Assembly (NCBI GenBank): GCA_905182615.1
Contig: CAJJCG010000034.1
Span: 1-64,000 of the forward strand
Reading direction: 5' to 3'
Source: Alphaproteobacteria bacterium UBA2964
GTDB taxonomy: Bacteria > Pseudomonadota > Alphaproteobacteria > MPNO01 > UBA2964
Length of the DNA: 64,000 nucleotides
Shown: positions 43,234-61,684 of the stretch, one piece after another
Position numbering within the stretch: position 1 is the stretch's first letter
How the letters are laid out: each line of letters begins with the position of its first letter
Made by a program: the position numbers and the translations under genes
Notes under the pieces: generated by a model
What the model was told of the DNA's origin: nothing
The model's database searches: none
The model's input: the letters and a program-made list of their open reading frames with translations, nothing else

Positions 43234-43859
43234 TTTAGGTATGTGCGTGGTAGCCAGAGTGCGATATCGGATAACGCCATTACCAGCGCTAATGCGATGA
43301 GCTGTAACCCCACAAACGGCATACTGCCGCGCCAGATTTCCTGCATCGAAACGACAGATGACGCTGCTCCTTTAACATAAAACAGCGTGAACCCGAAGGG
43401 TGGGGTCAGAAAGCTGGTTTGTAAATTGATCGCCATGAGGATGGCCAACCAATATAGAACTTCAGCCTTGGAAACATGGCCGTCGAAGTCGAGTAGCTCG
43501 ACGATGGGGACGAAGATCCGCAAAACGATGAGTGTGATCTCGATCCAGTCAAAGGAAAACCCCAACAGAAAGATCTCGGCCATCAATGCCGCGAGTATGC
43601 CCCAGGTACCGTGCCCGCTGGATTCCGCTAACCCGGTGATAACGCTGTTGCCACCAAAGGGTCGCAACACGAGAGAAAACGCGGTCGCGCCGATAAAGAT
43701 ACCAAACAGCATGCCGTCGGTAAGTACGGCACGCCCCAGGGAGTCCCGGACTACGCTGAAATAGGACACCGGTATGGAGGAAATGGCTTGCTGTTTTTGG
43801 GCGAGGCTCGGCATAAAGAACGCCAGCAGTAGTGCGCTGAAGGCGCCAACCCCTGCCGT
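43230..43859 (-). pseudogene. C-terminal fragment of a TRAP DctM large permease
   Basis: Only about 200 C-terminal residues remain (…LAILMAINLQTSFLTPPFGFTLFYVKGAA…FPxIALWLP-like end). The frame begins right at the stop codon of the upstream isochorismatase gene, and no N-terminal half is present. Confidence 0.8.
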
Positions 43860-45044: not shown

Positions 45045-46016
45045 CTACGTCACCGGCACGAATAACTCTTCGATCGGAACTGGCTCAGCGATCAAATACT
45101 GTTCGTGCAGGTGTTGTACCAGTGTTTCTAGCGTTGACCGGTTGGCTTCGAGTCCGTAGGGCCATGGATCGCCATCAAAGATCTCGTCTACCTCATCCAT
45201 ATCGGCAAACATAAAAGGCAGCATGCAGTGCTGTGCTGCCGAGATACGAAGTTTGTCGAGCGCCCAGTTTTTTGAGGCATCGAAAGCGTCATAAAGACTT
45301 TTGGCGATCCACGGATTTGCCTCATAGACGTCCTGGTGGATAGCAATCACATGCATGATGGGATGAATCTTTGTACGTTCGTAAAACGCCCGCTCTATCG
45401 CTCGGTACTCCGGAAACAGCCGGACAACATCGGGATGCTTGCCCATTGCTGCGGGGCGCCGTGATCCCAGTATGGCATCAATTTCACCATCGGCGAGTAG
45501 ATCGCTCATTGATTTTCCGGAACTGTTGGGTTCCAGGGTCGGCGGCACTGATGGCGATGTAGTTTCAATCTTGGCGTGCTCACCGGCCTGCTCAACCGAC
45601 CCTTCAACCCAGCGCACTGTTGACCAGTTGACATCATAGTCATGCTGTAGGTGACCACGGATCCAGACGGCGGCGGTCTGTGAATGTTGTGGCACACCGA
45701 TGCGTTTGCCTTCGAGGTCCTTGGGTGAGGTGATCCCCGCATGCTTGTTGATGTAGATAAAGCCGTGACGGAAGGCCTTGGACGGAAAGACGGGAATACC
45801 GACAAACGGAAAATTGCCGCGTAACGAGCGGGTAATAAACTCAGAGCTGGAAAATTCCGACACATCGAATAATCCACCGCCGAGCATGCCGTCGAAAATT
45901 CGGCGTGGGGCATTGATCTCATTGAATTCGAGCTCAATGCCTTCCGGTTGGACGATCCCGTATTGCAGCGCGTCGAGCCGGTCATAACCGCCAGCGGCAA
46001 AGCGAAGTTTTAACAT
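45045..46016 (-). CDS. 4,5-dihydroxyphthalate decarboxylase-like protein (PBP/NMT1-like fold)
   Basis: 323 aa. The N-terminus MLKLRFAAGGYDRLDALQYGIVQPEGIELEF..I...RIFDGML....FDVSEFS matches my recollection of the PhtD/Pht5 family. No signal peptide. Confidence 0.65.
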   Translation of the reverse strand: MLKLRFAAGGYDRLDALQYGIVQPEGIELEFNEINAPRRIFDGMLGGGLFDVSEFSSSEFITRSLRGNFPFVGIPVFPSKAFRHGFIYINKHAGITSPKDLEGKRIGVPQHSQTAAVWIRGHLQHDYDVNWSTVRWVEGSVEQAGEHAKIETTSPSVPPTLEPNSSGKSMSDLLADGEIDAILGSRRPAAMGKHPDVVRLFPEYRAIERAFYERTKIHPIMHVIAIHQDVYEANPWIAKSLYDAFDASKNWALDKLRISAAQHCMLPFMFADMDEVDEIFDGDPWPYGLEANRSTLETLVQHLHEQYLIAEPVPIEELFVPVT

Positions 46017-47545: not shown

Positions 47546-48799
47546 GTGACGAGCGACAAACCCAAAAGCCGCGGCCTGATCGGGGCTTTTTCGCACCGTA
47601 ATTTCGCGATTTTTGTTGCGGGAAATTTTCCATCCCAATGTGGTGTGTGGGCGCAGCGTTTGGCGATCGGGTGGCTTACCTGGGAATTGACGGAATCCGG
47701 CTGGTGGCTTGGCTTGATGGGGTTTGCCGATTTAGTGCCCGTGGTCCTCCTCAGTCCAGTTGCAGGGTATATGGCTGACCGGTTTGAACGGATCAAGCTG
47801 GCCCGCATTATTCAGTTTATGAATGCCATGGTGACGGCTCTGCTGGCCATAACGGCTTTTGCCGGATGGTTAAATATTGAGCTCTTACTGTTGTTTGCCT
47901 TCATCACTGGCATGGATCACGCAATGTTTCAGCCGATCCGAAGTTCATTGCCACCCGAACTGGTGCCACGTGAAGACTTGCCCGCCGCCATCGCCTTTGG
48001 TGGGTTTACCTGGAATAGCGCGCGATTAATCGGGCCGGCGATTGGGGCGACGATCCTCCATTACTTTGATGTGAACACGGTCTTTTTGGTCAATACCTTT
48101 CTGTATCTTTGGTTCTTTGCAGCGCTGTGGATGGTGCGTGTACCACCAGCGCCAAAGCGTCCACCTTCCGGTCTCTCTATTCTCGGGGATATCATTGCCG
48201 GGTATCGCTACGCGGTGTCGCATCCGGTTATCGGACCGTCACTCGTTATCCTTTTTGGCGCATCGTTTCTGACAAGACCGTTGGTCGAGCTGATGCCTGG
48301 ATTTTCATCTGGTGTGTTTGGGCAGGGTCCGGGCGGTCTCGCCATTTTAACTTCGGCGATGGGTGTCGGCGCAGTTATGGCGGGTATCACAATAGCCCAG
48401 CGTGGTCGGTTTGAGGGCTTGGCAAGAATTACGGCTTACGCGGTGCTCGTTGGCGCCATCGTTCTCGTAGTGTTCACCAACACAACTCATTTCGAAGTGG
48501 CCGTGGTTTGCATGGTGTTCTTTGGCATTCAGTACTCTCTGGTAGGGACCTGTATTCAGTCACTCATCCAGGCTGTTGCCGATGAAAGGATGCGCGGCAG
48601 GGTCTTGGCTCTCTACGGGTTGATCTGGATCGGTAGTGCAGCAATAGGGTCGTTGGTAATGGGAGCGCTGTCTGACGTCTTTGGCCTCAGCAAACCGATA
48701 GCGGTGAGCGGGATGGTTTGCCTCGCTGTCTTCGTATTCGCGTGGCGGGCAAAAGAACCAATTGAAGCAATAATCGCAAAACAGCAGGATCGGAATTAA
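47546..48799 (+). CDS. MFS transporter (EntS/MFS_3-like)
   Basis: 417 aa with about 12 TM helices, a GTG start, and the motif PVAGYMADRFERIK. Confidence 0.83.
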   Translation: MTSDKPKSRGLIGAFSHRNFAIFVAGNFPSQCGVWAQRLAIGWLTWELTESGWWLGLMGFADLVPVVLLSPVAGYMADRFERIKLARIIQFMNAMVTALLAITAFAGWLNIELLLLFAFITGMDHAMFQPIRSSLPPELVPREDLPAAIAFGGFTWNSARLIGPAIGATILHYFDVNTVFLVNTFLYLWFFAALWMVRVPPAPKRPPSGLSILGDIIAGYRYAVSHPVIGPSLVILFGASFLTRPLVELMPGFSSGVFGQGPGGLAILTSAMGVGAVMAGITIAQRGRFEGLARITAYAVLVGAIVLVVFTNTTHFEVAVVCMVFFGIQYSLVGTCIQSLIQAVADERMRGRVLALYGLIWIGSAAIGSLVMGALSDVFGLSKPIAVSGMVCLAVFVFAWRAKEPIEAIIAKQQDRN

Positions 48800-49413
48800 A
48801 CCTGCCAGAACCTTTCATCCAGATTGTTTAGATCGTCTGGTTCGTCGACATCGAAAGCCAGGTTTGGTCTTTCAATGATCTGGACATCACAACCTGCCTC
48901 TATCGCGATATTACGGTGTTTTTCGAAGCTGTTCGTCCCAAACGAAAACTTAAATGAATCTGGTGGCCGTATGTAGAGTGCGTTGGTACCGTGTTGGGTT
49001 CCGTCCGGTGCGATGGTAACAAGCTCTGATTTTGATGTGTGATCCTCTATGCTCGTGAGAACGGCTGATAAGTCTGTTGGGGCAAGCTTGGCCAGATCGG
49101 CAGGGACGACAAGAAATCCGGACGCACTGAGTACGACACTCGCTTTGCGGGCCACATCAAGAGCAGCGTTTAGGTTAGAAATTTCAGCTTCGAGAATTGC
49201 GTGAGCGCCGGCCTCTTCAGCGAGGCTCAGAGCCTCTTCGTCACGACTGATAACGATCGTATCGACTACTCCTGGCGTCGCGAGCGTGGTCTTGAGCACA
49301 TGGCAAAACATATTTCGAATCAGCGCTTGTCGTTGGTCATCTGCCAACACCGATGCTAATCGGCTCTTGCCTTCTGCAAAGGGTTTGACAGGAATGACCG
49401 CGGCAACAGACAT
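48796..49413 (-). CDS. cofC: 2-phospho-L-lactate (or analogue) guanylyltransferase CofC/FbiD
   Basis: N-terminus VIPVKPFAEGKSRLASVL and ...VVPADLA, typical of CofC. It is the last gene of the F420 operon. Confidence 0.85.
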   Translation of the reverse strand: MSVAAVIPVKPFAEGKSRLASVLADDQRQALIRNMFCHVLKTTLATPGVVDTIVISRDEEALSLAEEAGAHAILEAEISNLNAALDVARKASVVLSASGFLVVPADLAKLAPTDLSAVLTSIEDHTSKSELVTIAPDGTQHGTNALYIRPPDSFKFSFGTNSFEKHRNIAIEAGCDVQIIERPNLAFDVDEPDDLNNLDERFWQV

Positions 49414-49418
49414 GAGCG

Positions 49419-50369
49419 TTAGGAGCCTTTCCGAGACAAGGTAGCTGCGAGATTTAAAGTTTCCTGTGCTAAAAGGGCTTCGTCCTCGGCTGATTTCATC
49501 AATGTGTTCGTAACCTGTACACCGATACCAGTGGCCATGATTTGTTCGGCCAAATCGACGTCTTCGTTGTCGATCACTAGCCCGTCGATCAAGTTACCAT
49601 AATGCTGTGCAATCCCACGCGGCGATACCGGCAGGCCGAGCTCCGCCATCATCTTGGCAGCTGGGCCCTTGACGGCCTGACCACCAATGATCGGTGATAC
49701 TGCGATAATAGGGACTCCCGCATTATTAAGGGCATTGAAAACGCCGGGTACGCTGAGAATAGGGTCGATACTGACATACGGGTTAGAGGGACAAAACATG
49801 ATTGCCGTTAGAGACGGGTCCCTCAGTGCGGCCTTAAATTGTGGGGCTGGGACGGCCTCCTCCATGCCCTTATAATGAACACCGGTGAACGTCGGCTCGC
49901 AGCGCAGGCGGACGAAATAATCCTGAAAAAAGAAATCACCGTCTTTGGTATCGACCACGGTGCCAACGCGATGATCTGTCATAGGCACGATAGAATGGGC
50001 AATTTTGTGCTGCTGGCACAACGCGCGGGTGACCTCGGAGAGGGTCTGGCCCTCGGTCAGACGGCGGGTGCGTTCGATATGAGTGGCAAGGTCTTTGTCG
50101 CCGAGCTGGAACCAGTCTTCGCCGCCAATTTTCTTGAGAGATTCCATAAAGTTCCAGGTCTCGTCCCGGATACCCCATCCGCGTTCAGTGTCATTAATGT
50201 CTGCGAGTTTATAGAGAACGGAATCTAGATCCGGGCAGATAAAGTAATCCAGATGCAGAAAATCATCACCGGTATTTACCGCGATCACCAACTCTGAAGG
50301 GTCGAGGATACGGGTTAATCCGTGCGCCAGCTTTGCGCCGCCAACACCGCCTGCCAATGCGACGATCAT
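49419..50369 (-). CDS. cofD: 2-phospho-L-lactate transferase CofD/FbiA
   Basis: MIVALAGGVGGAKLAHGL N-terminus and ...NPYVSIDPIL. 316 aa. Confidence 0.92.
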   Translation of the reverse strand: MIVALAGGVGGAKLAHGLTRILDPSELVIAVNTGDDFLHLDYFICPDLDSVLYKLADINDTERGWGIRDETWNFMESLKKIGGEDWFQLGDKDLATHIERTRRLTEGQTLSEVTRALCQQHKIAHSIVPMTDHRVGTVVDTKDGDFFFQDYFVRLRCEPTFTGVHYKGMEEAVPAPQFKAALRDPSLTAIMFCPSNPYVSIDPILSVPGVFNALNNAGVPIIAVSPIIGGQAVKGPAAKMMAELGLPVSPRGIAQHYGNLIDGLVIDNEDVDLAEQIMATGIGVQVTNTLMKSAEDEALLAQETLNLAATLSRKGS

Positions 50370-50385
50370 ATCAACAACATTTTGC

Positions 50386-51216
50386 TCAGCGGAACAAATC
50401 CTGTTCCTGGGCGCGTATCAAATCCTGTGCGTTTCCCTGTCCGGTTTGTACGGCGTAGCCACGTATATGAACCGCGGGGCGCCCTTCATCCGCCTGCCCC
50501 ATAACGATGGAGGCGGCGGCAGCCAATTCGTCGGCGAGTCCGACCTGTGTTGCTTGAAGCGGACGATCAAATAAGTCATGGCGGCCATTGAGGTCGAGGA
50601 GAGCATCGATCCCCGCCGTGCCGATCGCCATACCGACGGTGCCGTTGCGCCAAGCCCGTCCGACGCTGTCATTGATAATTACGGCGACATCAGCACCGGT
50701 CTTTTCTCGGAGGCTGTCGCGGAGAAATTGACAACTACCGTCAGGGTCCTTGGGAAGCAGTAATACCTGTTGTTTGGCATCGTCTTCAGTCGCGCCTCCA
50801 AGCGGTTCGACATTGGAGGAGTCGATACCCGCATTGGCCATAACGATGCCGAGATTGTGCTCGACGATCAGGACGCCTTTGCGTTTTCTAACCACGCCTC
50901 TGGATTCCGAAAGAATCAATTCGACTAGTCTTGAGTCTTTGCCGACCTCTTTTGCAAGCTCGATAGCGGCAGGGGACGGCGTGACAGAATCCAGTGCGGC
51001 GTAGCGGTCCTCGGATTTTGAAACAATTTTCTGGGCCAGCACTAAAATGTCACCGTCTTGCAGTGTTATGCCACATCTCAGTAATCCGTCGCATATGATG
51101 CTCCCTATATCGTCACCGGGGTTGACTAGTGGAATGCCTGGCAACGCAGATATAGAGAGCTGACCGCTGGTTTGGGCAGCGGTGTCGATCTCCGAATTTG
51201 TCGGAGAGGCATCCAT
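50386..51216 (-). CDS. cofE: Coenzyme F420-0:L-glutamate ligase CofE (single-domain form)
   Basis: Pattern GDILVLAQKIVSKSE...GIVMANAGID.SN. At 276 aa there is no C-terminal nitroreductase-like FbiB domain. Confidence 0.88.
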   Translation of the reverse strand: MDASPTNSEIDTAAQTSGQLSISALPGIPLVNPGDDIGSIICDGLLRCGITLQDGDILVLAQKIVSKSEDRYAALDSVTPSPAAIELAKEVGKDSRLVELILSESRGVVRKRKGVLIVEHNLGIVMANAGIDSSNVEPLGGATEDDAKQQVLLLPKDPDGSCQFLRDSLREKTGADVAVIINDSVGRAWRNGTVGMAIGTAGIDALLDLNGRHDLFDRPLQATQVGLADELAAAASIVMGQADEGRPAVHIRGYAVQTGQGNAQDLIRAQEQDLFR

Positions 51217-51219
51217 TAC

Positions 51220-51912
51220 TCAGCCTTTCGATTCTGCTGGCGTGCCGGTGATACGAATACCGGAGCCCGGTATTTTGTGAGCGCGATTTATGGAGATTAG
51301 AACCGATGTCATGGCTTCCGCCGCCGCGGCATTGGCCAATGGGCCTGCGTGCCAGCCGGTCATCCCTGCATCTTTGGCTAAGTCGATTACTATTTCCCGC
51401 GCGGATTTCTTATTGCTGCAGACCAGGACATCGCAATCAATTTTGTGGTCGAGGTCAGCAAGATGTTGGGCGGCGATGTTTTGAAACGCTGCGACGACCG
51501 TAACTTCTTCGCCGAGCATTTTCTGCACGGCGACAACAGCTGAGCCGCCTTCCGGCAATTGGACTGTCCCGACTTTGGGCGGCACCAAAGGTGCCGTGAC
51601 ATCGATAAGCAGTTTGCCTTTAAGGGCACCGGCAATCGGGGTGATGGTGTCGATTTGATTTGAATAGGGGACTGCTAAAACAGCAATCTGGCACTCCGTT
51701 GCGGCAGAAAAATTGTCAGCACCCCGGACATTACCCCATTTGCTGCCAGCTGGCGCCATAGCGATAATCTCTGTAGCGACCTGCGTCGCACGACTGGCGT
51801 CACGCGATCCAATTATGATGTCATGCCCGGCCCTTGCCCAACGCATAGCGAGGCCGGAGCCTTGATTGCCAGTGCCGCCAATAACGGCAATAGCGGATTT
51901 GGTGTCAGTCAT
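51220..51912 (-). CDS. npdG: NADPH-dependent F420 reductase (Fno/NpdG family)
   Basis: IAVIGGTGNQGSGLA Rossmann motif with Fno-like length. ATG 51912 is preceded by AGGAA; the track start is TTG 51927. Confidence 0.86.
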   Translation of the reverse strand: MTDTKSAIAVIGGTGNQGSGLAMRWARAGHDIIIGSRDASRATQVATEIIAMAPAGSKWGNVRGADNFSAATECQIAVLAVPYSNQIDTITPIAGALKGKLLIDVTAPLVPPKVGTVQLPEGGSAVVAVQKMLGEEVTVVAAFQNIAAQHLADLDHKIDCDVLVCSNKKSAREIVIDLAKDAGMTGWHAGPLANAAAAEAMTSVLISINRAHKIPGSGIRITGTPAESKG

Positions 51913-51923
51913 AAGATCATTCC

Positions 51924-54299
51924 TCAAGCAATCGCCGCCAGGGGCTCCGCATTATAGGACGCTGCTGCGCGTTCAGATGTGACGTCATTATACAGAGTTG
52001 TCCGCTGAACGGCGCGCCGCCCAGCATTTTTGATTATCCGCTCCATCTCATAGGGTTCACATTCTTGGCCGTGGACTGTACCCGCCGCCCGGGAAATGCT
52101 CTCATTCATCAGAGTGCCGCCAAGATCATTGACCCCGGCATTCAGGCAGGCCTGGATACCCTCCTGGCCCATCTTGACCCAGGAAACCTGAATATTGCGA
52201 ATGACTGGATGCAAAACAATCCGAGCAATAGCGTGCATTAAAATAGACTCACGGAAGGTTGGCCCGCGCCGGGCAAACCCTTTGAGATAGATCGGCGCTT
52301 CCATATGCACGAATGGCAGCGGAACGAATTCAGTAAACCCGCCGGTTCGTTCTTGAAGCGCTCGGATACGCAGCAAGTGCCGTGCTAGATGGACGGGCCG
52401 TTCCATATGGCCATACATAATTGTGGCCGTTGTTCGGAGGCCTAACTCATGGGCGGTTTCCATCACCGACAACCATTCTTCGGTGTTGAGCTTGTCGGGA
52501 CAGAGCGTTGCCCGAACCTCGTCATCAAGAATTTCTGCCGCGGTTCCGGGCAGTGTCGATAGTCCTGCTTCTTTGAGACGTGACAGGAAGTCTTCAATAG
52601 TGAGATTTGAGGTATGTGCCCCTTGGGTGATTTCGAGTGGTGAAAAAGCGTGGATATGCATATCCGGTGCGGCGGCTTTGACGGCGGCGCAAATATCCAG
52701 ATAGGTCTGACCGGTGTAGTCGGGATGAATACCACCTTGCAGACAAACTTCCGTAGCACCGCGGTTCCAGCCTTCTGCCGTGCGACGTCCAATTTCTTCC
52801 GTGTCCAGGCGGTATGGTTTGCCGCGGAGGGTCTTTGCCGTCTTGCCTTTGGAAAAGGCACAGAAGGTACAGCGATAGGTGCAGATATTAGTGTAGTTGA
52901 TATTGCGATTTACGACATAGGTGACATCGTCGCCGTTTGTCGACTCGCGCAAAGAATTTGCGGTCTCACAAACTTTCGCGAAATCGATATCGCGCGCCTG
53001 AAACAGTCGAGTGATCTCTATCTCGTTTGGCACATCGCCGACCGATACCTGTTCGAGGATGGTGCTGATGTCGTTTGAAGGGTGAGAACGATGTATTAAG
53101 ATTGCGGGTGGTTTGATGTCAACACCCGGCGCCCAGTCTTCTGTGCGGGCCAGCCCATCCGCGTCGCTAGCGCGAATAGCCGCCTTCGCCATTCCGGCTG
53201 TCATCCAGCGCGAGGCATCAAAGATGTATGACGGGTAGACTGCCAGCCGTTCGACTAAAGTCTTTCCAGTCTCTGCTGTGCGGTCTGCCAGCGCGCTAAT
53301 TTCTGGCCAGGCGGCTTCGGGATTTACGTGATCGGGAGTGACCGGTGAAATACCGCCCCAGTCATTCAACCCCGCAGACACCAATTGAGGGTAGACTTTC
53401 GGGCTGAGATTAGGGGGTGCCTGAATATTCATGTCCGGCCCAAAGATCAGACGGGCGCAGGCGATGGTCCAAAGCAAATCATCGAGATCGGGCTCCGGCG
53501 CGTTGGCCATGCGGGTCGTCGGTTTGGCCCGAAAATTCTGGATTATAATTTCCTGAATATGGCCGTAGGTTTCGTGTAGGTCGCGGATCGTCAGCAGGTC
53601 GTTGATGCGCTGTTCCCGTGTCTCGCCGATTCCGATGAGAATACCCGTCGTGAAGGGTACGTTGGCTTCGCCAGCATTGCGCAATGTTTGTAGTCGCGCC
53701 TCCGGCATCTTGTCGGGGGAACCAAAATGTACCCCGCCGGGTTCACATAAGGCATGGGCGGTAGATTCCAGCATCATGCCCATTGAAACGGTGACCGGGC
53801 GCAGTACGTCTATCTCTTCCCGTGTCATTGCACCCGGATTTGCATGGGGCAATAACCCAGTCTCCTCAAACACCAGTCGGCACATTGCCGCCAGATACTC
53901 GATGGTCGAGGCATATCCCAATTCGCTCAGGGCTTCGCGCGCCGCCTCGTAGCGCAGTTCGGGCTTGTCGCCGAGTGTAAAGAGCGCTTCTTTACAGCCC
54001 GCAGATTTACCCGCGCGTGCAATCTCGAGAACCTCACCCGGTGATAGGTAGGGGGTAGAGACATTGCTAGGTATCGTCGCAAAAGTGCAGTAGCTGCAGC
54101 TATCGCGGCACAGCCGCGTCAGGGGAATAAAGACCTTACGAGAATAGGACAGGCGGTCCGCATGGCCGCAATCGCGCAGCGTCGCCGCCTGCTCAAGCAA
54201 TGTTGGTAGCGGAGCATTCAGTAGATAGTCAGATGAAATCGTTTGCGCGCCCAATGAGGCTGTCCCGATACGGATGACGTGAGTGATATTTGCGACCAT
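51924..54299 (-). CDS. fbiC: Bifunctional FO synthase FbiC (CofG + CofH radical-SAM domains)
   Basis: 791 aa with two radical-SAM CxxxCxxC motifs (CRDSCSYC and CTYRCTFC). Confidence 0.95.
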   Translation of the reverse strand: MVANITHVIRIGTASLGAQTISSDYLLNAPLPTLLEQAATLRDCGHADRLSYSRKVFIPLTRLCRDSCSYCTFATIPSNVSTPYLSPGEVLEIARAGKSAGCKEALFTLGDKPELRYEAAREALSELGYASTIEYLAAMCRLVFEETGLLPHANPGAMTREEIDVLRPVTVSMGMMLESTAHALCEPGGVHFGSPDKMPEARLQTLRNAGEANVPFTTGILIGIGETREQRINDLLTIRDLHETYGHIQEIIIQNFRAKPTTRMANAPEPDLDDLLWTIACARLIFGPDMNIQAPPNLSPKVYPQLVSAGLNDWGGISPVTPDHVNPEAAWPEISALADRTAETGKTLVERLAVYPSYIFDASRWMTAGMAKAAIRASDADGLARTEDWAPGVDIKPPAILIHRSHPSNDISTILEQVSVGDVPNEIEITRLFQARDIDFAKVCETANSLRESTNGDDVTYVVNRNINYTNICTYRCTFCAFSKGKTAKTLRGKPYRLDTEEIGRRTAEGWNRGATEVCLQGGIHPDYTGQTYLDICAAVKAAAPDMHIHAFSPLEITQGAHTSNLTIEDFLSRLKEAGLSTLPGTAAEILDDEVRATLCPDKLNTEEWLSVMETAHELGLRTTATIMYGHMERPVHLARHLLRIRALQERTGGFTEFVPLPFVHMEAPIYLKGFARRGPTFRESILMHAIARIVLHPVIRNIQVSWVKMGQEGIQACLNAGVNDLGGTLMNESISRAAGTVHGQECEPYEMERIIKNAGRRAVQRTTLYNDVTSERAAASYNAEPLAAIA

Positions 54300-54351
54300 A
54301 CTGCGTTAGCGAGGCGAGGAAAAGAAGGGCTGATTAGAGGCCTGTAGAAAA

Positions 54352-55455
54352 ATGACGGTTCAAAAAGTAACAATATTGGGAGCAGGGCACGGAGGCTGTG
54401 CGGCAGCGGCCGATTTGACCGCGCGCGGTTTTGAGGTTCGCCTGCATGCGCGCCGCGAAGAGAGCCTGGCGCCATTGCGTGAACAAGGCGGCATTCAGGC
54501 AGCTGGCGTTCAGGATGGATTGTTCCCGGTTCACTTGCTGACCACTGACATAGAAGCGGCCATAACTGGCGCTGATATAATCATGTTGGTGGTGCCGTCG
54601 GTGGCGCATGGATTTTATGCGGAGGCACTGGCGCCGCTTTTGACGCCGGATATCCCGGTATTTGTAAACCCCGGCCATACAGGTGGGGCGCTGCATTTCG
54701 TCAGTGAATTGCGTCGCGCTGGTTACACCGATCCGGTTAAAACCTGCGAGACCGTCACGCTCACCTATATATGTCGTAAAACCGGACTGGCATCGGTTGA
54801 AATTTTTTCCTATACCAAGAAGCTAAAATTCGCGGCCTTTCCTGGCAAGCACGCGCAGGACATGTTTGACCTCGTCAAACCGCTTTACCCGAAAATCACC
54901 TTGGTCAGCAGCGTCTTGGAAACAGCACTGACCAATATCAATGCCGTGTTCCATGCACCTGGTATGTTAATGAACGCTGGATGGATCGAAGATACCGGCG
55001 GCGATTTTTTGTTCTACCGCGAGGGCATTACGCCGGCGGTCGGCCGGGTTATTGCTGAACTGGATGCCGAACGCATGGCCGTGGCCAAAGCGCTTGGTGT
55101 ACCGACGGCAAGCTTTCTGGAAAATTTCTATCAGGCAGGCTTAACAACATTAGAGGCGAAAGACTCCGGCGACATTTCGCGGGCTTGTGTTGAGAGCGAA
55201 CCAAACTGGAAAATCAAAAGCCCACCGTCGCTGGATCATCGCTACATCCATGAAGATGTCGGCTATGGGTTGGTGCCGTTTGCCGGATTTGGCCGTCTGG
55301 CTGATGTGCCGACACCAACGATTGATGGGATTATTCATCTGACCTCGGAAATGATGGACATACCCTATGCGACCGATGGTCTGACGCTTGAGGCCATGGG
55401 GCTCGGCGATCTTGATGCCGAAGGTGTTCTGAAGTTCGTCGAGGAGGGTGCGTAA
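54352..55455 (+). CDS. NAD/NADP octopine/nopaline (opine) dehydrogenase family protein, paralog A
   Basis: 367 aa with N-terminal Rossmann KVTILGAGHGGCAAAADL and a helical C-terminal domain with the E.RY..EDV.YGLVP pattern. The family call is by recognition only. Confidence 0.78.
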   Translation: MTVQKVTILGAGHGGCAAAADLTARGFEVRLHARREESLAPLREQGGIQAAGVQDGLFPVHLLTTDIEAAITGADIIMLVVPSVAHGFYAEALAPLLTPDIPVFVNPGHTGGALHFVSELRRAGYTDPVKTCETVTLTYICRKTGLASVEIFSYTKKLKFAAFPGKHAQDMFDLVKPLYPKITLVSSVLETALTNINAVFHAPGMLMNAGWIEDTGGDFLFYREGITPAVGRVIAELDAERMAVAKALGVPTASFLENFYQAGLTTLEAKDSGDISRACVESEPNWKIKSPPSLDHRYIHEDVGYGLVPFAGFGRLADVPTPTIDGIIHLTSEMMDIPYATDGLTLEAMGLGDLDAEGVLKFVEEGA

Positions 55456-56564
55456 TGGCTGCACCTGTACAAAGCATTGCGATCTTTGGCGCCGGTGGCG
55501 GTGGCACATCCGCAGCGGCCCATCTGACGACTTTAGGATTTCAAATCCGTCTCTATAGCCAGGACGAAAGCGCGCTGGCCCCATTACAGGAAATCGGTGG
55601 CATCGAATACGATGCGCCGTTTGGCAAAGGTTTTGCGAAAATTCCGGTAATTACGTCTGATGTCGCGACCGCGATGGCCGGGGCAGAGTTGGTGATGATT
55701 GTCAGCCCGGCGCATTTGCATGAGAAATGGATTTCTGCCGCAGCACCCCATCTGACCGATGATCAAACCTTGTTTGTTTCGCCGGGTCATACCTTGATGC
55801 TGATCCCGCATATCCTGCGCGCCAATGGAATCAAGAATCCGGTGTTTTGTGAGACCGCGACGCTACCCTATCTCTGTCGTCGTACCGGCCCGACCACCTG
55901 TCGCATTTCGCGGGTGTCAGATTTTATGGTGTTTGGTGGCTTTCCGGGTGTTGCGACCAAACGTCAGTATGACATCGTCAGCACCGTCTATCCAGCGGTG
56001 AAGGAATTCTCCAACGTGCTGGAAACGGTCTTTCCTTATGGCAATGCCATCCATCATCCACCGGCTTTCTTGTGCAATGCCGGGCGGATCGAGGCGACGG
56101 GCGGCGATTTTCGGCATTATTATGATGGCATCACGCCATCAGTCGGGCGGTTGATCGATGCCGTGGATCACGAACGGGTCGCGGTGGCTGATGCGTTGAA
56201 TGCCAAGACTATGCCGTTTGTCGAGCTATTCTATCAGATGGGCTATACGACGGAGGCGGCACGCGAGAGCGGTATCGCCTATGAGGCGTTTCATCAGAGT
56301 GAACCAGATAAATGGATACCGGCGCCACCGCAGCTTGAGCACCGCTATTTTCTAGAAGATGTGCCCTATGGCCATATCATCTATTCAGAGCTTGGCCGTC
56401 TGGCCGGTGTGCCGACCCCGACGATTGACCACATCATTCATCTCGCCTCGGTCTCGCTGGGGCGTGACCTGACGGCGGATGCGCTGACGCTGGAGAAGAT
56501 GGGCCTCGCAGGGGTGACGAAAGAAAGATTTCTTGATCTGCTGGAAAACGGATTTGACAATTAG
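55455..56564 (+). CDS. NAD/NADP opine dehydrogenase family protein, paralog B
   Basis: 369 aa with SIAIFGAGGGGTSAAAHL, colinear with paralog A throughout (…LEHRYFLEDVPYGHI…PTPTIDHIIHL). The start overlaps the A stop (TAATG). Confidence 0.78.
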   Translation: MAAPVQSIAIFGAGGGGTSAAAHLTTLGFQIRLYSQDESALAPLQEIGGIEYDAPFGKGFAKIPVITSDVATAMAGAELVMIVSPAHLHEKWISAAAPHLTDDQTLFVSPGHTLMLIPHILRANGIKNPVFCETATLPYLCRRTGPTTCRISRVSDFMVFGGFPGVATKRQYDIVSTVYPAVKEFSNVLETVFPYGNAIHHPPAFLCNAGRIEATGGDFRHYYDGITPSVGRLIDAVDHERVAVADALNAKTMPFVELFYQMGYTTEAARESGIAYEAFHQSEPDKWIPAPPQLEHRYFLEDVPYGHIIYSELGRLAGVPTPTIDHIIHLASVSLGRDLTADALTLEKMGLAGVTKERFLDLLENGFDN

Positions 56565-56576
56565 GGAGATACGACG

Positions 56577-57575
56577 ATGGCGGTAAGACTTGGGATGCGG
56601 TTTGACGGGTTTGATCCCGTTGGTGAAACCATTGAGGTGGCGGCACAGGCGGAAGAGGCTGGTGCGGATACGATCTGGATGGCGGAGCATCTTGGTTATC
56701 GTGAGGCTGCCGTTTCCTGCATGGCTTTTGCGCTCAAGACGCAGCGGGCGATGGTTATCCCGACCGCTGTCATGCCCTATATCTGGCACCCGATGCCGAC
56801 CGCGATGCAGTTCGCGACTATGGCGGAAGCGGCGCCGGGCCGCGTTGGCATTTGCGTGTCGGTTGGCAATCTTTTGAACCTGCGCGAATCCGGGGTGCCA
56901 CATCCTGAAAAGCCGGTGCGGGTCATTCGCGAATATGTCGAGGCCTTGCGAGCCTTGTGGAATGGCGAGACGGTTGATCAGGAAGGTTTGATCTGGCAAT
57001 TACGTGGCGCGCGGTTGGCGTTCAAGCCGCCCAAACCGATCCCGATCTTTATCGCCTCGACAGGCCCACAGGTATTGGGACTTGCAGGTCGTATTGCCGA
57101 TGGCGTGCTGTATTCTGGCGGGCTGTCACTGGCCTCCATCAAAAAATGTGCCGACTTTGCAGATATCGGCATCGCCAAGGCGGGACGCGACCCGTCGGAA
57201 GTCCGCAAGGCGGGGTTTGTGTATTTCGCCTGTTCCAAAAACGGCACCGATGCAGTTGAAGCCAACCGCCGTAAAATCGCCTTCCTGTTCCGCAACTCTG
57301 CCCAGGCGGACAATATAGCTTCGGTCGGTATCCCGATTGATCACGAAGCGATTATTGAGCTGGTCAAAGCCCGGAAATTGGACGAAGCCGCGCAGCTGAT
57401 CCCACCCGAAGCCGTGACCCAGTTCACCGTCGCAGGCACACCGGATCAATGTCGCGAACAGTTGCAGGCCTATATCGATGCCGGGGTTGAAGAGCCAGTG
57501 ATTGAGGTCAGCGGCAATGACGAAGAAAAGGCATTGGCGCTGGAAGTTATTCGCGAGTTTACGGCGGGCCGGTAG
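56577..57575 (+). CDS. Luciferase-like (LLM) oxidoreductase, Mer/Fgd-like (putatively F420-dependent), paralog A
   Basis: 332 aa with the TIM-barrel LLM pattern (GADTIWMAEHLGYRE...). It resembles proteins usually annotated as methylene-H4MPT reductase-like. F420 dependence is inferred from context. Confidence 0.8.
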   Translation: MAVRLGMRFDGFDPVGETIEVAAQAEEAGADTIWMAEHLGYREAAVSCMAFALKTQRAMVIPTAVMPYIWHPMPTAMQFATMAEAAPGRVGICVSVGNLLNLRESGVPHPEKPVRVIREYVEALRALWNGETVDQEGLIWQLRGARLAFKPPKPIPIFIASTGPQVLGLAGRIADGVLYSGGLSLASIKKCADFADIGIAKAGRDPSEVRKAGFVYFACSKNGTDAVEANRRKIAFLFRNSAQADNIASVGIPIDHEAIIELVKARKLDEAAQLIPPEAVTQFTVAGTPDQCREQLQAYIDAGVEEPVIEVSGNDEEKALALEVIREFTAGR

Positions 57576-57594
57576 GGCCTGACAGGAGACGATC

Positions 57595-58581
57595 ATGCCA
57601 AAGATTGGCATCCGATTTGACGGGTTTGAAGATGCGCCGGAAACATTCCGGGTTGCCGCACTGGCCGAGAAAGCTGGTGCGACTGGGCTGTGGATGACTG
57701 AACATATTGGCTATCGGGAATCGCTTGTCTCATGCATGGCTTTTGCCATGAAGACCAAAAACGCGATGGTCATTCCGGCGGCAGTCACCCCCTATCTGTT
57801 TCACCCGACACCGACCGCGATGTCACTAGCGACGATGGCGGAGGCCTTTCCGGGCCGGGTTGGCGTGTCGGTTGCAATTGGTAATACGCTGGACCTCAAA
57901 GAATCTGGCAAGGAACCAAAGGATGCCGTGCAGGCAGTAGAAGATTATGTCCGCGATCTCCGCGCTATGTGGACGGCCGAGGCGGTTGAAAGCGAGACCG
58001 AGGCCTATAACCTCGCCGGTGTACGGATGTCCTTTAAGACTGATAAGGCGATCCCGATTTACGTGACGGCGCTGGGCAGTGAGGTTGCGTCAAAGGCGGG
58101 TGAAGTTGCTGACGGTATGTTGATGTCCGCTGGGTTCTCAGTGCCGTTTGTTGAGAACTGCCTGAAACGGTTTCGCGAAGGGGCCGCGCAGGCAGGGCGG
58201 GACGTGTCTGTTCTACGCACCGCCGCGTTCATCCACTTCTCGGTCTCGGAAGATGGCCATTCAGCGCGCGAAGATGTCCGCCGTAAGCTGGCCTTTCTAT
58301 TTCGCAACCGACTGATGGCAGAGAACATTGCCTCCTCCGGTATCCCGATTGATCAGGATGCCATTGTTGATGCGGTCGCGGCACGTGATCTCAAAAAAGC
58401 CGCGACCCTTGTGCCTGATGAAGCCATTGAAGCTTTCGGTGTCGCGGGCACCGTGGCGGATTGTAAGAAAAGCCTTGAGGCCTATGTCGCGACCGGGCTC
58501 GACGAGCCGGTGATTCAGGTCGCCGGTGATGAGGCTGCCAAGACCCTGGCTCTGCAGGTGATCAGAGAATTTACGGGGTGA
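57595..58581 (+). CDS. Luciferase-like (LLM) oxidoreductase, Mer/Fgd-like, paralog B
   Basis: 328 aa, colinear with paralog A (IRFDGF..........A.AE.AGA...WM.EH.GYRE..VSCMAFA.KT..AMVIP.AV.PY..HP.PTAM). Confidence 0.8.
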   Translation: MPKIGIRFDGFEDAPETFRVAALAEKAGATGLWMTEHIGYRESLVSCMAFAMKTKNAMVIPAAVTPYLFHPTPTAMSLATMAEAFPGRVGVSVAIGNTLDLKESGKEPKDAVQAVEDYVRDLRAMWTAEAVESETEAYNLAGVRMSFKTDKAIPIYVTALGSEVASKAGEVADGMLMSAGFSVPFVENCLKRFREGAAQAGRDVSVLRTAAFIHFSVSEDGHSAREDVRRKLAFLFRNRLMAENIASSGIPIDQDAIVDAVAARDLKKAATLVPDEAIEAFGVAGTVADCKKSLEAYVATGLDEPVIQVAGDEAAKTLALQVIREFTG

Positions 58582-59088
58582 GACCACAGCCAAAGATAGA
58601 AATAAGCACGTCGTTGCCGGTTGTCTCATGAAATTCAATTTCAATCCTCATTTATCGAACTTCGGTCCGCGTTCGCAAACCGTAAGAAACCCGTTAAGGA
58701 AACGGCGGCGCCGATTAGAAAACCGATGACGTAAAAAGCCAATAGTGCCGTAGCAATCGATAGTGATGATGAACTACAGCTGTATCTCTAAATTTTAATT
58801 GGTTTCCCGATCGATCTTAAAGACAGTGCCGCTGAGAATGCCAATGACCCGAACGCAACGGTTAGAAACAGATCGAAAATGCTGATCATGCTTTCAGTAT
58901 AAGTCGTTGCTGTTGCAACCAAAAAATCCACAATTTCTTTGTCAACTATCGCAATCTACTCCTGCAGTAATAGAAATATTAGCTTGATTTTTCCTGTATA
59001 AATTGGGTGGGAAACCATACGAATGAAGTTTGCCCAACATCATTTGCTGTAGGCTTCACAGCGGACATTTTCTTTAGCAATTGGTTCC

Positions 59089-59985
59089 TTAAAACTCCAT
59101 TAAATCTTCGGCAACGATGACCTCGCCGGCGTAGTGTTTCCTGACCTCTTCGGCCCAGGGCTCATAATCCGATGAGTTGGCGCGCTGGGTGAGATGGGAC
59201 AGTACTACCTTTTTGACACCAGCCTGTGTCGCCAGCATACCGATTTTATCTAGATCCATGTGCCCCATGGCCGCCTGACGCATGATGCCTTCCTGTTCGA
59301 CTTCGCTCATGGCCTGCCAGCGTCCGTCTTGAATCATCTTACTTTTGCGGTCGTCACAGGAAGAGGTTTCGGTCACCAAAATATCGGCATCCGCGGCCAG
59401 CTCTGTGACAGCGGGGGTGAAACCGGTATCGCCGGTAAATGCGATCACACGATCCGGGGTCTCGAAACGGTATGAATAGGACTTAAAACGACCGGCGGCC
59501 CCTCCCTGATGGAAGCTGAAATGGGTGTTCTCTGTTGCGTAAACGCGAATGTTGTCATCCTGATATATCTCGCCGACGCCGACATCATGGCCATAGAACA
59601 TCTGATCCAGCGGGATACTACGGCCACCATCGGCGATGCGGATGTCGGCACTGATGCTGCATAATTGCACAGTCGCATCTACAAGTTCTTTGGTTCGCGG
59701 TGGGCCATAGACATTGATCGGTTCGGAACGATGCCCGTCCCACGCCAGAGACATCAGGGTCCCGAGTCCTGCCGTATGATCATCATGATGATGGGTGAGA
59801 AAGATGATCCCGACATTGCGGACCTCTGCTCCAGCCCTCGCCATACGTCGCGCGACACCGTCGCCGGCATCCACAACATAGTATGTGCCGTTTACGGTAA
59901 GGAGATGGGATGTTTGCGCCCGACCCGGCGTCAATGACGGGCCAGCCGAGGTACCGAGAATGATCAAGGACGATGGTGTGGACAT
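59089..59985 (-). CDS. MBL-fold metallo-hydrolase (RNase Z/beta-lactamase-B-like)
   Basis: HHHDDH motif (FLTHHHDDHTAG) with distal GDTG and SH ligands. The start is set at MSTPSSLIILGTSAG (59985). Confidence 0.85.
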   Translation of the reverse strand: MSTPSSLIILGTSAGPSLTPGRAQTSHLLTVNGTYYVVDAGDGVARRMARAGAEVRNVGIIFLTHHHDDHTAGLGTLMSLAWDGHRSEPINVYGPPRTKELVDATVQLCSISADIRIADGGRSIPLDQMFYGHDVGVGEIYQDDNIRVYATENTHFSFHQGGAAGRFKSYSYRFETPDRVIAFTGDTGFTPAVTELAADADILVTETSSCDDRKSKMIQDGRWQAMSEVEQEGIMRQAAMGHMDLDKIGMLATQAGVKKVVLSHLTQRANSSDYEPWAEEVRKHYAGEVIVAEDLMEF

Positions 59986-60564
59986 TATATTTCTCTCTTT
60001 TGTGTGAAGGCCAGAACTACCTAACTGCCAGCAACCCCCATTTCTTCCCGGTCTATCAGGAAGCTGAGAAACTGAACCGGCCCATTTGCATTCATACCGG
60101 ATCAGGCGCACCAAAGCTGATGGAACTATACAATCTAGAGCGCAATCATTCCTTCGCACATGGCCGGGTGTTGCCGCTCTTTGCGTTCAGGGATCTCGTC
60201 CATAATGGCATTCCGGAAATGTTTCCGAAATTGCGCTTTGGTTTCGTAGAAGCATCCGCTGGTTGGGCACCGTTTATTGTCCATATTTTTACGGCGTTTG
60301 CTGGCCAAGAACAGGAAGTTCTCGAACAGTCAGGATTTGTTCCACGAGTACCGCATATTTATTGCCTGCGAGGCGGACGAAGACATACCCTATCTCACCA
60401 ATTTTATTGGCAGTGATAATCTGATTACTGGTTCCGATTACGGCCATAACGACCCGGCCGCTGAACCAATGCTGTTGAAATCTCTGGCGTCACGGGTCGA
60501 TCTGTCGACTGAGCCTCAGGACAGTATTCTGAAAACCAACTCGCGGGTGCTCTGCAGGATGTAG
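59973..60564 (+). pseudogene. Amidohydrolase_2 (ACMSD-like decarboxylase/hydrolase) remnant, N-terminally truncated and frameshifted
   Basis: Two overlapping fragments in different frames: 59973-60416 (…NPHFFPVYQEAEKLNRPICIHTG…FVEASAGWAPF…) and 60277-60564 (…YRIFIACEADEDIPYL…GSDYGHND…). The N-terminal roughly one third is absent, and that space is occupied by the opposite-strand MBL gene. Confidence 0.75.
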
Positions 60565-60568
60565 GCTC

Positions 60569-61684
60569 TTAGCCGATCCGGTAAAGCGTATCGGTATCCG
60601 TTGAATCTGACAGGAGTTCTGCGCCGGTTTTGGTGACCGTGATCATATCTTTGAGCTGTAGCCCAAAGCCGTGACCGGTTTGGTAAACCAGTGGCTCTAT
60701 GCCGAGCACCATGCCGGCTTCCAGCGTGTATTCGTCGTACTTCCCGAGATACGGGTCTTCATGCAGATGGAGCCCGATGCCGTGTCCGACAAAAGAGATT
60801 GGTGGCAGGCCGAGCTCGCCAAACTTTTCGAGAAAGATTTCGTAAACCCGTTTGGCGCTGGCACCGGGTTTGATCGCGTCGAGCACGCGGTATTTACACT
60901 CGACGAGATTTTTCCATATCTCGACGGCTTTTTCTGGCGGGTCCTCGACCGACGCCGTACGGCAGACACCGGCATGGTAGCCACCGATGATCGAGAAGAT
61001 TTCGACACGGCAGATATCTCCCGCTTCCAGGACGCGTTCGGTGGGTCCGACATTAGGCAGCTCTGATCGTGGCCCGGTGGCGACGATCATCAATTTGAAA
61101 TGTTCTGCGCCTTGTTCGTAAACACTGCGGGTGAGGGCAGCGGCCATATCCATCTCGGTCATGCCAGCTTTGACAGCGTCGAATGATGCTGCAATGGCGG
61201 TGTCAGAAATACGTGATAGGCGACGAAGCAAATCGATCTCGTCTGTTGATTTGATCTGACGGAGCTGATCAAAAATTTGATCCGCCGCAATAAACATCGC
61301 GCCCGGCAGAAGGCGCTTCAGATGTTCGTGATCACCGGCTGGGAGATAGTTCATCTCGATACCGATTTTACCATTGGTCGCGCCGAGATCGGAGAGTAGT
61401 TGGGCGAGGGAGTTCATGGGCTTGTCGGTGAACTCGCCCCAGATACGAATATCCGCATCGGGGACTTTGCCGCGCACGGTGGTTTCTTCCATGTCGACTG
61501 CGACGATGCCGGATTTGCCGTCTGAATTTACGGCGCAAATCGCGTGCCGCCAGCGCATCAGCGGCTGTGAGGGGACAACAAATCCGGTGCCATAGGCGAA
61601 GTTTTCGGGCGATATAGCGACAAGCACATCAAGCCCCGCCGCTTTCATCGCGGTCTTTTGTTTTTGAATGACGTCTTTACGCAT
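60569..61684 (-). CDS. M24-family metallopeptidase/hydrolase (Xaa-Pro peptidase / creatinase-like)
   Basis: 371 aa with a creatinase-like N-domain and a pita-bread C-domain carrying metal ligands (GDICRVEI, GYHAG, GHGIGLHLHE, EP, E). Confidence 0.87.
   Translation of the reverse strand: MRKDVIQKQKTAMKAAGLDVLVAISPENFAYGTGFVVPSQPLMRWRHAICAVNSDGKSGIVAVDMEETTVRGKVPDADIRIWGEFTDKPMNSLAQLLSDLGATNGKIGIEMNYLPAGDHEHLKRLLPGAMFIAADQIFDQLRQIKSTDEIDLLRRLSRISDTAIAASFDAVKAGMTEMDMAAALTRSVYEQGAEHFKLMIVATGPRSELPNVGPTERVLEAGDICRVEIFSIIGGYHAGVCRTASVEDPPEKAVEIWKNLVECKYRVLDAIKPGASAKRVYEIFLEKFGELGLPPISFVGHGIGLHLHEDPYLGKYDEYTLEAGMVLGIEPLVYQTGHGFGLQLKDMITVTKTGAELLSDSTDTDTLYRIG

Follow-up and report, generated by a model that had tools for sequence, protein, structure and literature searches.

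We analyzed a 64-kb stretch of DNA from an uncultured marine alphaproteobacterium (the whole stretch is referred to here as the window), in which the genes for the biosynthesis of coenzyme F420 (fbiC, npdG, cofE, cofD, and cofC, together called the cof genes) stand back to back with an operon of opine dehydrogenases (ODHs) and luciferase-like oxidoreductases (LLMs). Comparison with related loci shows that the conserved core of a gene island consists of a single ODH (ODHa), a single LLM (LLMa), and a hydrolase of the M24 family with a degenerate metal site (M24a), and suggests that this ODHa-LLMa-M24 island is one specific, recurrent user of a portable cof cassette. Judging from the sequences compared, we consider it somewhat probable that the island is an F420-linked catabolic unit with the LLM as its F420 enzyme.

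Recurrent linkage of the island to F420 biosynthesis genes

Relatives of the island were collected by scanning one genome per GTDB species, which gave at least 560 stretches with a relative of ODH1, the ODHa protein of the window. The best 80 loci were taken with 10-kb flanks; 51 of these are fully flanked, meaning that they extend at least 7 kb on both sides of ODHa, and their gene types were assigned by a tblastn matrix. Among the fully flanked loci, 21 of 51 (41%) contain cof genes within 10 kb of ODHa, against a chance expectation of ∼0.6% per genome (calculated for a cof operon of ∼5.5 kb, a 25-kb span, and a 4-Mb genome). This linkage, far above chance across divergent Alphaproteobacteria, is the strongest point for a role of F420 in the island, and it bears out the tie between the cof genes and the ODH/LLM set that had been proposed in an initial annotation of the window.

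The linkage occurs in at least six junction layouts, which span marine Rhodospirillaceae-like metagenome-assembled genomes (MAGs), Pseudolabrys, Defluviicoccus, and others. In the descriptions that follow, a slash marks the junction. The layout of the marine clade, to which the window belongs, is fbiC/ODHa-ODHb-LLM, where ODHb is a second ODH, and one locus (L017) has this same order with M24a and a gene of the muconate-lactonizing (MLE) subgroup of the enolase superfamily upstream of cofC. Two loci (L026 and L051) have fbiC/ODHa-LLMa with a convergent M24a-MLE pair; two Pseudolabrys loci (L043 and L052) have fbiC-GntR/M24a-ODHa-M24b-MLE-LLMa; eight Defluviicoccus-like loci have fbiC-(AMP-binding)/ODHa-LLMa; and the arrangement is codirectional or split in L073 and L056. 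In a rough neighbor-joining tree of FbiC, which carries no support values, the FbiCs linked to the island are interleaved with those of cof loci free of ODH, a pattern more in keeping with repeated docking or loss than with inheritance as one block. Across phyla, FbiC identities flatten at 64 to 69% among the best 120 matches, with the FbiC of Pseudolabrys and that of the window as queries.

The reciprocal sample consisted of seven cof loci chosen regardless of ODH, namely, those of S. meliloti pSymA, A. rubi, and Aromatoleum EbN1 and of four long contigs. None of the seven carries an ODH gene, and six of them adjoin other LLM genes and/or genes of the PNPOx type (FDOR), the LLMs being ∼25% identical to LLM1, the first LLM of the window. 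Given these other LLM and PNPOx genes beside six of the seven loci, the placement of the cofactor genes beside their user is a local rule, with proteobacterial cof operons serving as portable cofactor cassettes.

The divergent junction and the F420 biosynthesis genes

The genes of the window that belong to the junction and to the island are listed in Table 1. For the Cof, Fbi, and Npd proteins, we used the equivalog cut-offs of NCBIfam as the criterion of identity, and the Pfam domains match these assignments.

Table 1. Genes and sequence elements of the F420 biosynthesis operon, the ODH-LLM operon, and their surroundings in the window.
Feature	Position	Strand	Evidence
MFS_3 transporter, EntS-like	47546-48799	+	Convergent with cofC; the two genes share 4 nt at their 3′ ends
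cofC, 2-phospho-L-lactate guanylyltransferase family	48796-49413	-	TIGR03552, 152 bits (cut-off 105); Pfam CofC
cofD, phospholactate transferase	49419-50369	-	TIGR01819, 312 bits (cut-off 257)
cofE, F420-0:gamma-glutamyl ligase, single-domain, 276 aa	50386-51216	-	TIGR01916, 261 bits (cut-off 181)
npdG/fno, NADPH:F420 oxidoreductase (Fno)	51220-51927	-	TIGR01915, 207 bits (cut-off 150)
fbiC, fused CofG/CofH FO synthase	51924-54299	-	NF006687, 1140 bits (cut-off 1018); two radical-SAM domains
Control region common to fbiC and the ODH operon	54300-54351		52 bp, between the end of the fbiC start codon (54299) and the ATG at 54352
9-mer AGGAAAAGA	54317-54325		Kept in the marine clade; alignment of 12 cof/ODH junctions
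ODHa (ODH1), anchor gene of the island	54352-55455	+	Pfam Octopine_DH, 151 bits (cut-off 30); CENDH 1bg6, E = 8e-56
ODHb (ODH2), accessory paralogue	55455-56564	+	Pfam Octopine_DH, 143 bits (cut-off 30); 46% identical to ODHa
LLMa copy 1 (LLM1), F420-type luciferase-like oxidoreductase	56577-57575	+	Bac_luciferase, 192 bits; Mer 1z69, E = 2e-36
LLMa copy 2 (LLM2), tandem paralogue	57595-58581	+	Bac_luciferase, 150 bits; 52% identical to LLM1
M24a, creatinase/prolidase-fold hydrolase, degenerate metal site	60569-61684	-	Pfam Creatinase_N and Peptidase_M24; E-G-H-E-K in 46/46 M24a

The open reading frame (ORF) map places all nine ORFs of the two operons exactly where the initial annotation had them, and the measurements of that annotation agree with ours throughout: the 52-bp divergent gap, the tight packing of the minus-strand genes (gaps of 5, 16, and 3 nt from cofC through cofD and cofE to npdG), the two ODH paralogues joined by a TAATG stop/start overlap at 55455, and the two LLM paralogues, with gaps of 12 nt from ODH2 to LLM1 and 19 nt from LLM1 to LLM2. 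The spacing between npdG and fbiC depends on the start chosen for npdG. Taking the TTG start of the ORF finder, the two genes overlap by 4 nt; an ATG at 51912, preceded by GAGGA 8 nt upstream, gives a product of 230 amino acids as in the relatives and leaves a gap of 11 nt, and it is likely the real start.

The arrangement is not due to chance: the cof/ODH junction was found again in many relatives, and in the marine clade the length of the divergent region ranges from 40 to 127 bp. The 9-mer AGGAAAAGA is kept in all marine-clade junctions that were aligned (L009 to L017) and not kept in the soil-type junctions L026 and L051; it could serve as an operator, as part of a promoter, or in ribosome binding. 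A consensus scan of the region from 48.5 to 59.2 kb for σ70 promoters and terminators returned no more sites than shuffled sequence. So compact a divergent promoter suits reporter work.

The earlier description of the F420 gene set as complete holds for the five genes, all of which score above their equivalog cut-offs, and has to be qualified for the nitroreductase function found in FbiB. CofE of the window is a single-domain protein without the FbiB nitroreductase domain, and a tblastn search of the window with the stand-alone nitroreductase of a cof locus without ODH (L094) found no match to an FbiB-type nitroreductase. A dehydro-F420-0 reductase is required only when phosphoenolpyruvate is the linker substrate and not with 2-phospho-L-lactate or 3-phosphoglycerate. 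In L094, the stand-alone nitroreductase-family gene (12378-13040, plus strand) lies directly after fbiC, and its product is a candidate for a separate dehydro-F420-0 reductase.

Opine dehydrogenases and luciferase-like oxidoreductases

Enzymes of the opine dehydrogenase family join an amino acid to a 2-keto acid by reduction with NAD(P)H. Both ODHs of the window consist of an Octopine_DH domain and an N-terminal Rossmann domain, in which the glycines of the GxGxxG motif (G10, G12, and G15) are invariant. N-(1-D-carboxyethyl)-L-norvaline dehydrogenase (CENDH) (PDB 1bg6) aligns with ODH1 over its full length, and the His of the NAVxH motif as well as the R-Y-x-x-E-D segment are identical in both. 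Across the related loci, H201, R297, and D302 are invariant in 77 of 77 ODHa and 26 of 26 ODHb sequences; we take H201 and the Arg-x4-Asp pair to be catalytic, on the model of the CENDH and octopine dehydrogenase structures. Because strand β2 of ODHa ends in H-A-R-(R/N/S), with H-A-R-R in ODH1, at the place where CENDH is acidic, ODHa probably prefers NADP(H), a preference that would suit the NADPH-linked Fno. Homologues of ODH1 are plentiful in MAGs of Alphaproteobacteria, at 65 to 98% identity among the best 120 matches. In the plasmid collection, no close homologue of ODH1 was found, the best matches there, in Aminobacter and Shinella, being 38% identical.

The LLMs have been described as Mer/Fgd-like, which is right as to the similarity to a Mer-type scaffold and not as to a membership in either family. 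All strong NCBIfam matches of LLM1 and LLM2 are of the F420 type (Mer, MSMEG_2249, NP1902A, Rv3093c, and Fgd), and for LLM1 the top 12 NCBIfam and top 10 PDB matches are F420 enzymes. The best PDB matches of the LLMs are Mer (1z69), Fgd, Adf, and the F420-dependent hydroxymycolic acid dehydrogenase (fHMAD). The FMN-type families score 70 bits or less, which is 2 to 3 times under the scores of the F420-type families, so the LLMs fall outside the FMN-dependent subfamilies, as had been supposed. Every F420 LLM subfamily nevertheless scores below its own cut-off, the best being Mer (PRK02271) with 164 bits versus 276. A second Mer model gives 137 bits versus 349, and on these scores, together with the replacement of the catalytic Glu6 described below, we rejected Mer as the identity of the LLMs. 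Fgd was rejected as well, at 89 bits versus 420 for TIGR03554; the residue aligned with its catalytic Glu, presumably Glu109 in Mtb Fgd1, is Asn98.

Gehl et al. 2024 (PMC11094777) name as the determinants of Mer Glu6, whose exchange for Gln (E6Q) leaves 0.4% of kcat, together with Asp96, Phe233, and a residue with a carboxamide at position 178; the non-prolyl cis-peptide Gly61-Val62 backs F420. Upon alignment of jMer with LLM1, Glu6 corresponds to Arg8, Asp96 to Asn98, position 178 to Ser180, Phe233 to Phe236, and Gly61-Val62 to Thr63-Ala64, so that, as read from the sequence, the residues aligned with the bulge after β3 are non-prolyl. At position 8, the six commonest residues in 80 related LLMs are Arg (29), Ser (27), Ala (6), Asn (5), Phe (5), and Tyr (2), Glu not being among them, while H38, P62, T63, A64, N98, and S180 are each found in 67 to 77 of the 80 (T63 in 67 and A64 in 76). 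The LLMs thus make up a coherent subfamily that has no name yet; its scaffold is of the F420 type, and it is neither Mer nor Fgd. Their cofactor is probably F420, and the basic residue at the barrel mouth of LLMa would be compatible with an anionic substrate.

Composition of the island in related loci

The 80 loci include those of marine Rhodospirillaceae-like MAGs, Pseudolabrys, Defluviicoccus, Xanthobacteraceae, and Bradyrhizobium and of a few Methylomirabilota and Burkholderiales MAGs; cultured carriers are Rhodoplanes roseus, R. elegans, R. azumiensis, and Siccirubricoccus phaeus. By the tblastn matrix, an LLM accompanies ODHa in 42 of the 51 fully flanked loci, an M24 gene (Creatinase_N plus Peptidase_M24) in 38, an MLE-subgroup gene in 30, an ODH2-type paralogue (ODHb) in 22, Tct genes in 21, that is, in as many as have F420 biosynthesis genes within 10 kb, and subunits of a molybdenum hydroxylase in 14. 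A second count, made by unbiased all-against-all clustering of the ORFs of all 80 loci with no overlap filter, ranks the genes in the same way. Here, the ODH cluster is found in 77 loci, LLM and M24 in 57 each, and MLE in 39; these are followed by TctC (26 loci), an ATPase of a NitT/TauT-type ATP-binding cassette (ABC) transporter (25), and TctA (16), by fbiC (24), fno (24), cofD (23), cofE (21), and cofC (17), and by GntR (14), a periplasmic binding protein (11), and an ABC permease (10).

Synteny maps give the usual gene order as [GntR] M24a-ODHa-M24b-MLEa-LLMa-(TctCBA or ABC)-ODHb-(LLMb). Of the 80 loci, 30 have an LLM as the next gene downstream of an ODH, and 25 have an ODH and an M24 gene side by side. 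In most relatives, the core is joined by an epimerase of the MLE type, a regulator of the GntR family, and importers, either TctABC or ABC. The second ODH and the second LLM are accessory: LLM2-type copies occur only in some close relatives and are missing from the 86 to 90% identical loci L001, L011, and L012 and from L016. The "2+2 cassette" of two ODHs and two LLMs, which the initial annotation had taken for the unit, does not hold up as such, since ODHb is present in fewer than half of the loci, a second LLM only in a subset of close relatives, and M24a is missing from it. For the same reason, the idea that the paired paralogues act as obligate heteromers is unlikely, the second copies being absent from most relatives.

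M24a lies convergent with the ODH-LLM operon, beyond the range that the initial annotation had covered. It and M24b, a second subfamily found in relatives, score below every NCBIfam cut-off and resemble PepQ, DoeA, and creatinase. We considered a canonical prolidase and rejected it, as neither subfamily has the dinuclear metal-ligand set: at the ligand positions, aligned to the prolidase of P. furiosus (1pv9), M24a reads E-G-H-E-K without exception, and M24b reads E-N-H-E-E in 23 of 23 sequences. The canonical ligands are D-D-H-E-E, which we take to be D209, D220, H284, E313, and E327 of the P. furiosus enzyme. With a noncanonical pattern in both subfamilies, a creatinase/DoeA-like amide or amidine hydrolase seems more likely. 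The MLE partner of the relatives scores 229 bits versus a cut-off of 335 in the muconate-lactonizing subgroup, and the solved structures nearest to it are those of N-succinyl-amino-acid racemase, of dipeptide epimerases, and of 4-hydroxyproline-betaine 2-epimerases; the tblastn matrix found no MLE gene anywhere in the window.

Several genes near M24a may be recorded here. Between LLM2 and M24a (58582-60159), ∼500 bp without a long ORF are followed by a gene of the metallo-beta-lactamase (MBL) fold, RNase Z/GntH-like, at 59089-60159. It looks like an insertion, because only one relative (L010) shares it and in the others M24a directly follows the LLM. Directly upstream of M24a and on the same strand is a gentisate-1,2-dioxygenase-like bicupin gene (61686-62696, minus strand; 224 bits versus a cut-off of 442), itself preceded on that strand by the gene of a flavin adenine dinucleotide (FAD) subunit, 4-hydroxybenzoyl-CoA reductase beta (62772-63752, minus strand; 431 bits versus 404). 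In relatives, the molybdenum and 2Fe-2S subunits follow the FAD subunit, and genes of the xanthine dehydrogenase family are near the island in 14 of the 51 loci. On the other side of the cof operon, a gene at 45045-46016 (minus strand) encodes a cytoplasmic protein of the NMT1/SsuA fold that is homologous to 4,5-dihydroxyphthalate decarboxylase (PDB 9jp7, E = 8.6e-64); this family is found between M24a and MLE inside the island of L021 and L027. The gene may be a member of the pathway, or it may hint at an aromatic or heteroaromatic dicarboxylate as the substrate.

ODHa-type genes were also seen in other surroundings. In L030, L035, L039, L050, L053 to L055, and L063, such a gene (62 to 67% identical to ODH1) is accompanied by one to three TctC genes, with no LLM, M24, MLE, or cof gene within 10 kb. 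The ODHa subfamily is evidently used in this second context as well.

Proposed pathway and alternative explanations

A more specific proposal, which we regard as a real possibility but short of an even chance, is that the island encodes a pathway, so far unrecognized, that uses F420 to break down an abundant nitrogen compound of the imino-acid or opine type, and in which the LLM would be an F420H2-dependent C=N reductase/dehydrogenase coupled by Fno to NADP-dependent ODHs. In the broader catabolic reading, which is our best explanation and which we consider somewhat probable, fbiC-npdG-cofE-cofD-cofC is a portable supply unit that makes F420 and equilibrates it with NADPH through NpdG/Fno. The island, GntR controlled and inducible by its substrate, would take up an N-substituted carboxylate by its importer; the M24 enzyme or enzymes would cut an amide or amidine C-N bond, and MLE, where present, would epimerize the alpha-carbon. 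ODHa and ODHb would then interconvert the secondary amine and the alpha-imino or alpha-keto acid with NADP(H), while LLMa would move a hydride between F420(H2) and a carboxylate-bearing C=N (or C=O) intermediate, for which the Apd6 luciferase-like hydride transferase (LLHT) reductases are a precedent. Fno, finally, would pass hydride between the NADP(H) pool of the ODHs and the F420 pool of the LLM. In each of the ODH, LLM, M24, and MLE families, some enzymes have N-substituted or cyclic imino acids as substrates; even so, the assignment of the substrate to the N-substituted (imino-acid or opine-type) carboxylates is tentative, and we would sooner doubt than adopt it.

Several observations weigh against an F420-linked catabolic island. 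No cof gene lies within 10 kb in 59% of the fully flanked island loci, for example, in the cultured Rhodoplanes spp., and two of the cof-linked loci (L018 and L022) have no LLM within the same distance. ODHa is accompanied by TctC genes alone in seven of the fully flanked loci and in a few others whose flanks are shorter, so that it is not tied exclusively to the island. The window's own clade is devoid of MLE, GntR, and an adjacent Tct or ABC importer and has the EntS-like MFS_3 transporter beside cofC instead, so the catabolic reading rests mainly on the relatives. The proposal also gives no reason why F420 should be used in place of NADPH, and in the two Alphaproteobacteria so far tested for F420, no more than traces of it were detected (review, PMC8498797).

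The transporter that stands in for the importer and GntR is also what keeps a biosynthetic island in contention, although we think it unlikely. In such an island, the ODHs would condense an amino compound with a keto acid, the LLM would tailor or supply the precursor with F420, and MFS_3 would export the product, a metallophore or osmolyte of the opine type. The reaction of opine dehydrogenases is reversible, and in known systems they work in the direction of synthesis, as CntM does for staphylopine-type metallophores; the MFS_3 gene abuts cofC in the window and in eight related loci. However, MFS_3 is conserved beside cofC in the marine clade only, and, being convergent with cofC, it is not cotranscribed with it. 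Most relatives, moreover, join the core to GntR, periplasmic binding proteins, TctABC or ABC importers, two hydrolases, and an epimerase, which is a catabolic type of gene content.

It is very unlikely that the adjacency has no meaning, that is, that the LLMs depend on FMN or that the cof operon landed by an unrelated island. The LLM scores below the cut-offs of all named F420 subfamilies, the cof-free majority of island loci, and the evident mobility of the cof operon would all fit that explanation. Set against them are the 21 linked loci where ∼0.6% would be expected, in at least six different layouts, the conservation of the divergent junction across the marine clade, and the fact that the strong relatives of the LLMs are all F420 dependent, with the FMN families far behind.

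We rate as highly improbable a third explanation, in which the ODHs and LLMs are accessory genes of F420 biosynthesis that supply the precursor of the lactyl or glyceryl linker or, in place of the FbiB nitroreductase domain, carry out the reduction of dehydro-F420-0. It draws on the single-domain CofE and the lack of a match to a nitroreductase or FbiB C-domain homologue in the window, on the stand-alone nitroreductase beside fbiC in L094, and on the control region that fbiC has in common with the ODH operon. Yet none of the seven cof loci sampled regardless of ODH carries an ODH, the LLMs beside cof genes elsewhere are only distantly related to LLM1, and in the cof-free majority of loci the island stands with transporters, hydrolases, and regulators. 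Finally, that the LLMs are true methylene-tetrahydromethanopterin reductases (Mer) of a one-carbon pathway is scarcely credible, for although Mer is their best match in both NCBIfam and PDB, the scores and the substitutions at Glu6, Asp96, and position 178 speak against it, and no genes of the tetrahydromethanopterin pathway are found among the annotated ORFs of the window.

Other features of the window

Two further regions lie outside the island. The stretch from 24776 to 32908 is of low GC content (46 to 50% versus 53 to 56% elsewhere in the window) and encodes TonB, an ABC ATPase, a FecCD permease, a Peripla_BP_2 binding protein, and a TonB-dependent receptor; beside these uptake genes are a histidine phosphatase (CobC-like) gene and a DBI_PRT (CobT) gene. 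It is probably a cluster for the uptake and salvage of a corrinoid or siderophore and was possibly acquired horizontally. At 43230-43814 (minus strand), an ORF of 194 amino acids aligns to DctM over its C-terminal third alone (profile positions 260 to 410 of 413) and is likely a truncated TRAP (tripartite ATP-independent periplasmic) permease or a pseudogene. In the relative L001, the gene that adjoins the isochorismatase gene encodes DctP.

Comparison with known systems

According to a 2021 review (PMC8498797), no F420-dependent enzyme of bacteria outside the Actinobacteria has been studied experimentally, and the role of F420 in Proteobacteria is an open question; the "Fgd" of Alphaproteobacteria carries a question mark there. 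As a speculation, some of the Fgd proteins predicted for Alphaproteobacteria may be of the LLMa type. The statement of the initial annotation that no characterized pathway is known to combine opine dehydrogenases and LLMs with F420 agrees with our literature search, which, in a coverage that did not include Ney et al. 2017, found nothing that joins opine dehydrogenases or the ODH/LLM/M24/MLE gene set with F420. The island and its relatives are a concrete, testable candidate for the use of F420 in Proteobacteria, in the form of a gene set (ODHa, LLMa, M24a, and in some cases MLE) that is found linked to the cof genes again and again in marine and soil Alphaproteobacteria. If the proposal is true, F420 would for the first time have a defined physiological use in Proteobacteria, one that extends to at least 560 species-level genomes, mostly of Alphaproteobacteria; should the LLM indeed use F420H2 to reduce the imine or ketone group of carboxylated substrates, the enzyme would also interest the field of biocatalysis.

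Among single enzymes, the closest solved structure to LLM1 by sequence is Mer (1z69 and 8qpl), with which it shares the TIM-barrel LLM scaffold, the residue Phe233, and, at the position of the bulge after β3, non-prolyl residues. The two differ in that the place of Glu6 is taken by Arg (Ser in many relatives), that of Asp96 by Asn, and that of residue 178 by Ser, and in the scores of LLM1, which stay under the equivalog cut-offs. CENDH of Arthrobacter sp. 1C resembles ODH1 over the full length, including the GxGxxG motif, the His, and the R-Y-x-x-E-D segment; unlike ODHa, with its H-A-R-R, it has an acidic end of β2 (NAD type), and it stands alone, without a known connection to F420. For the chemistry of the LLM, the nearest precedent is Apd6 (LmbY-type), an F420H2-dependent LLHT that acts on an alpha-imino acid, the class of compound that opine dehydrogenases handle. 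Apd6 belongs to the biosynthesis of 4-alkyl-L-proline secondary metabolites in Streptomyces and not to a proteobacterial island.

At the level of gene clusters, the cof operons of S. meliloti pSymA, A. rubi pW2_73_1, and Aromatoleum aromaticum EbN1 plasmid 2 have the same fbiC/npdG/cofCDE set as the window and, like it, an adjacent putative F420 oxidoreductase. Unlike in the window, these oxidoreductases are of other LLM subfamilies (TIGR03619) or of the PNPOx type, there is no ODH, M24, or MLE gene, and the wider neighbors are CoA-transferases, oxoprolinase-like genes, and aminotransferases. The closest functional analogue is the npd cluster for picrate and 2,4-dinitrophenol in Rhodococcus and Nocardioides, which likewise combines an NpdG-type Fno with an LLHT ("Fht") and moves the hydride of NADPH by way of F420. 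It differs in being actinobacterial, in its nitroaromatic substrates, and in lacking an opine dehydrogenase, an M24 hydrolase, and an MLE epimerase; to our knowledge, the F420 biosynthesis genes are not part of it. Both the npd picrate system, as an Fno-coupled LLHT catabolic system, and the Apd6 LLHT enzymes, which reduce the endocyclic imine of pyrroline-2-carboxylates with F420H2, are described in the review cited above (PMC8498797). Compared with these systems, an F420-dependent cluster with a dedicated Fno is of a known kind, and what is new here is the ODHa-LLMa-M24 island as an F420-linked gene set.

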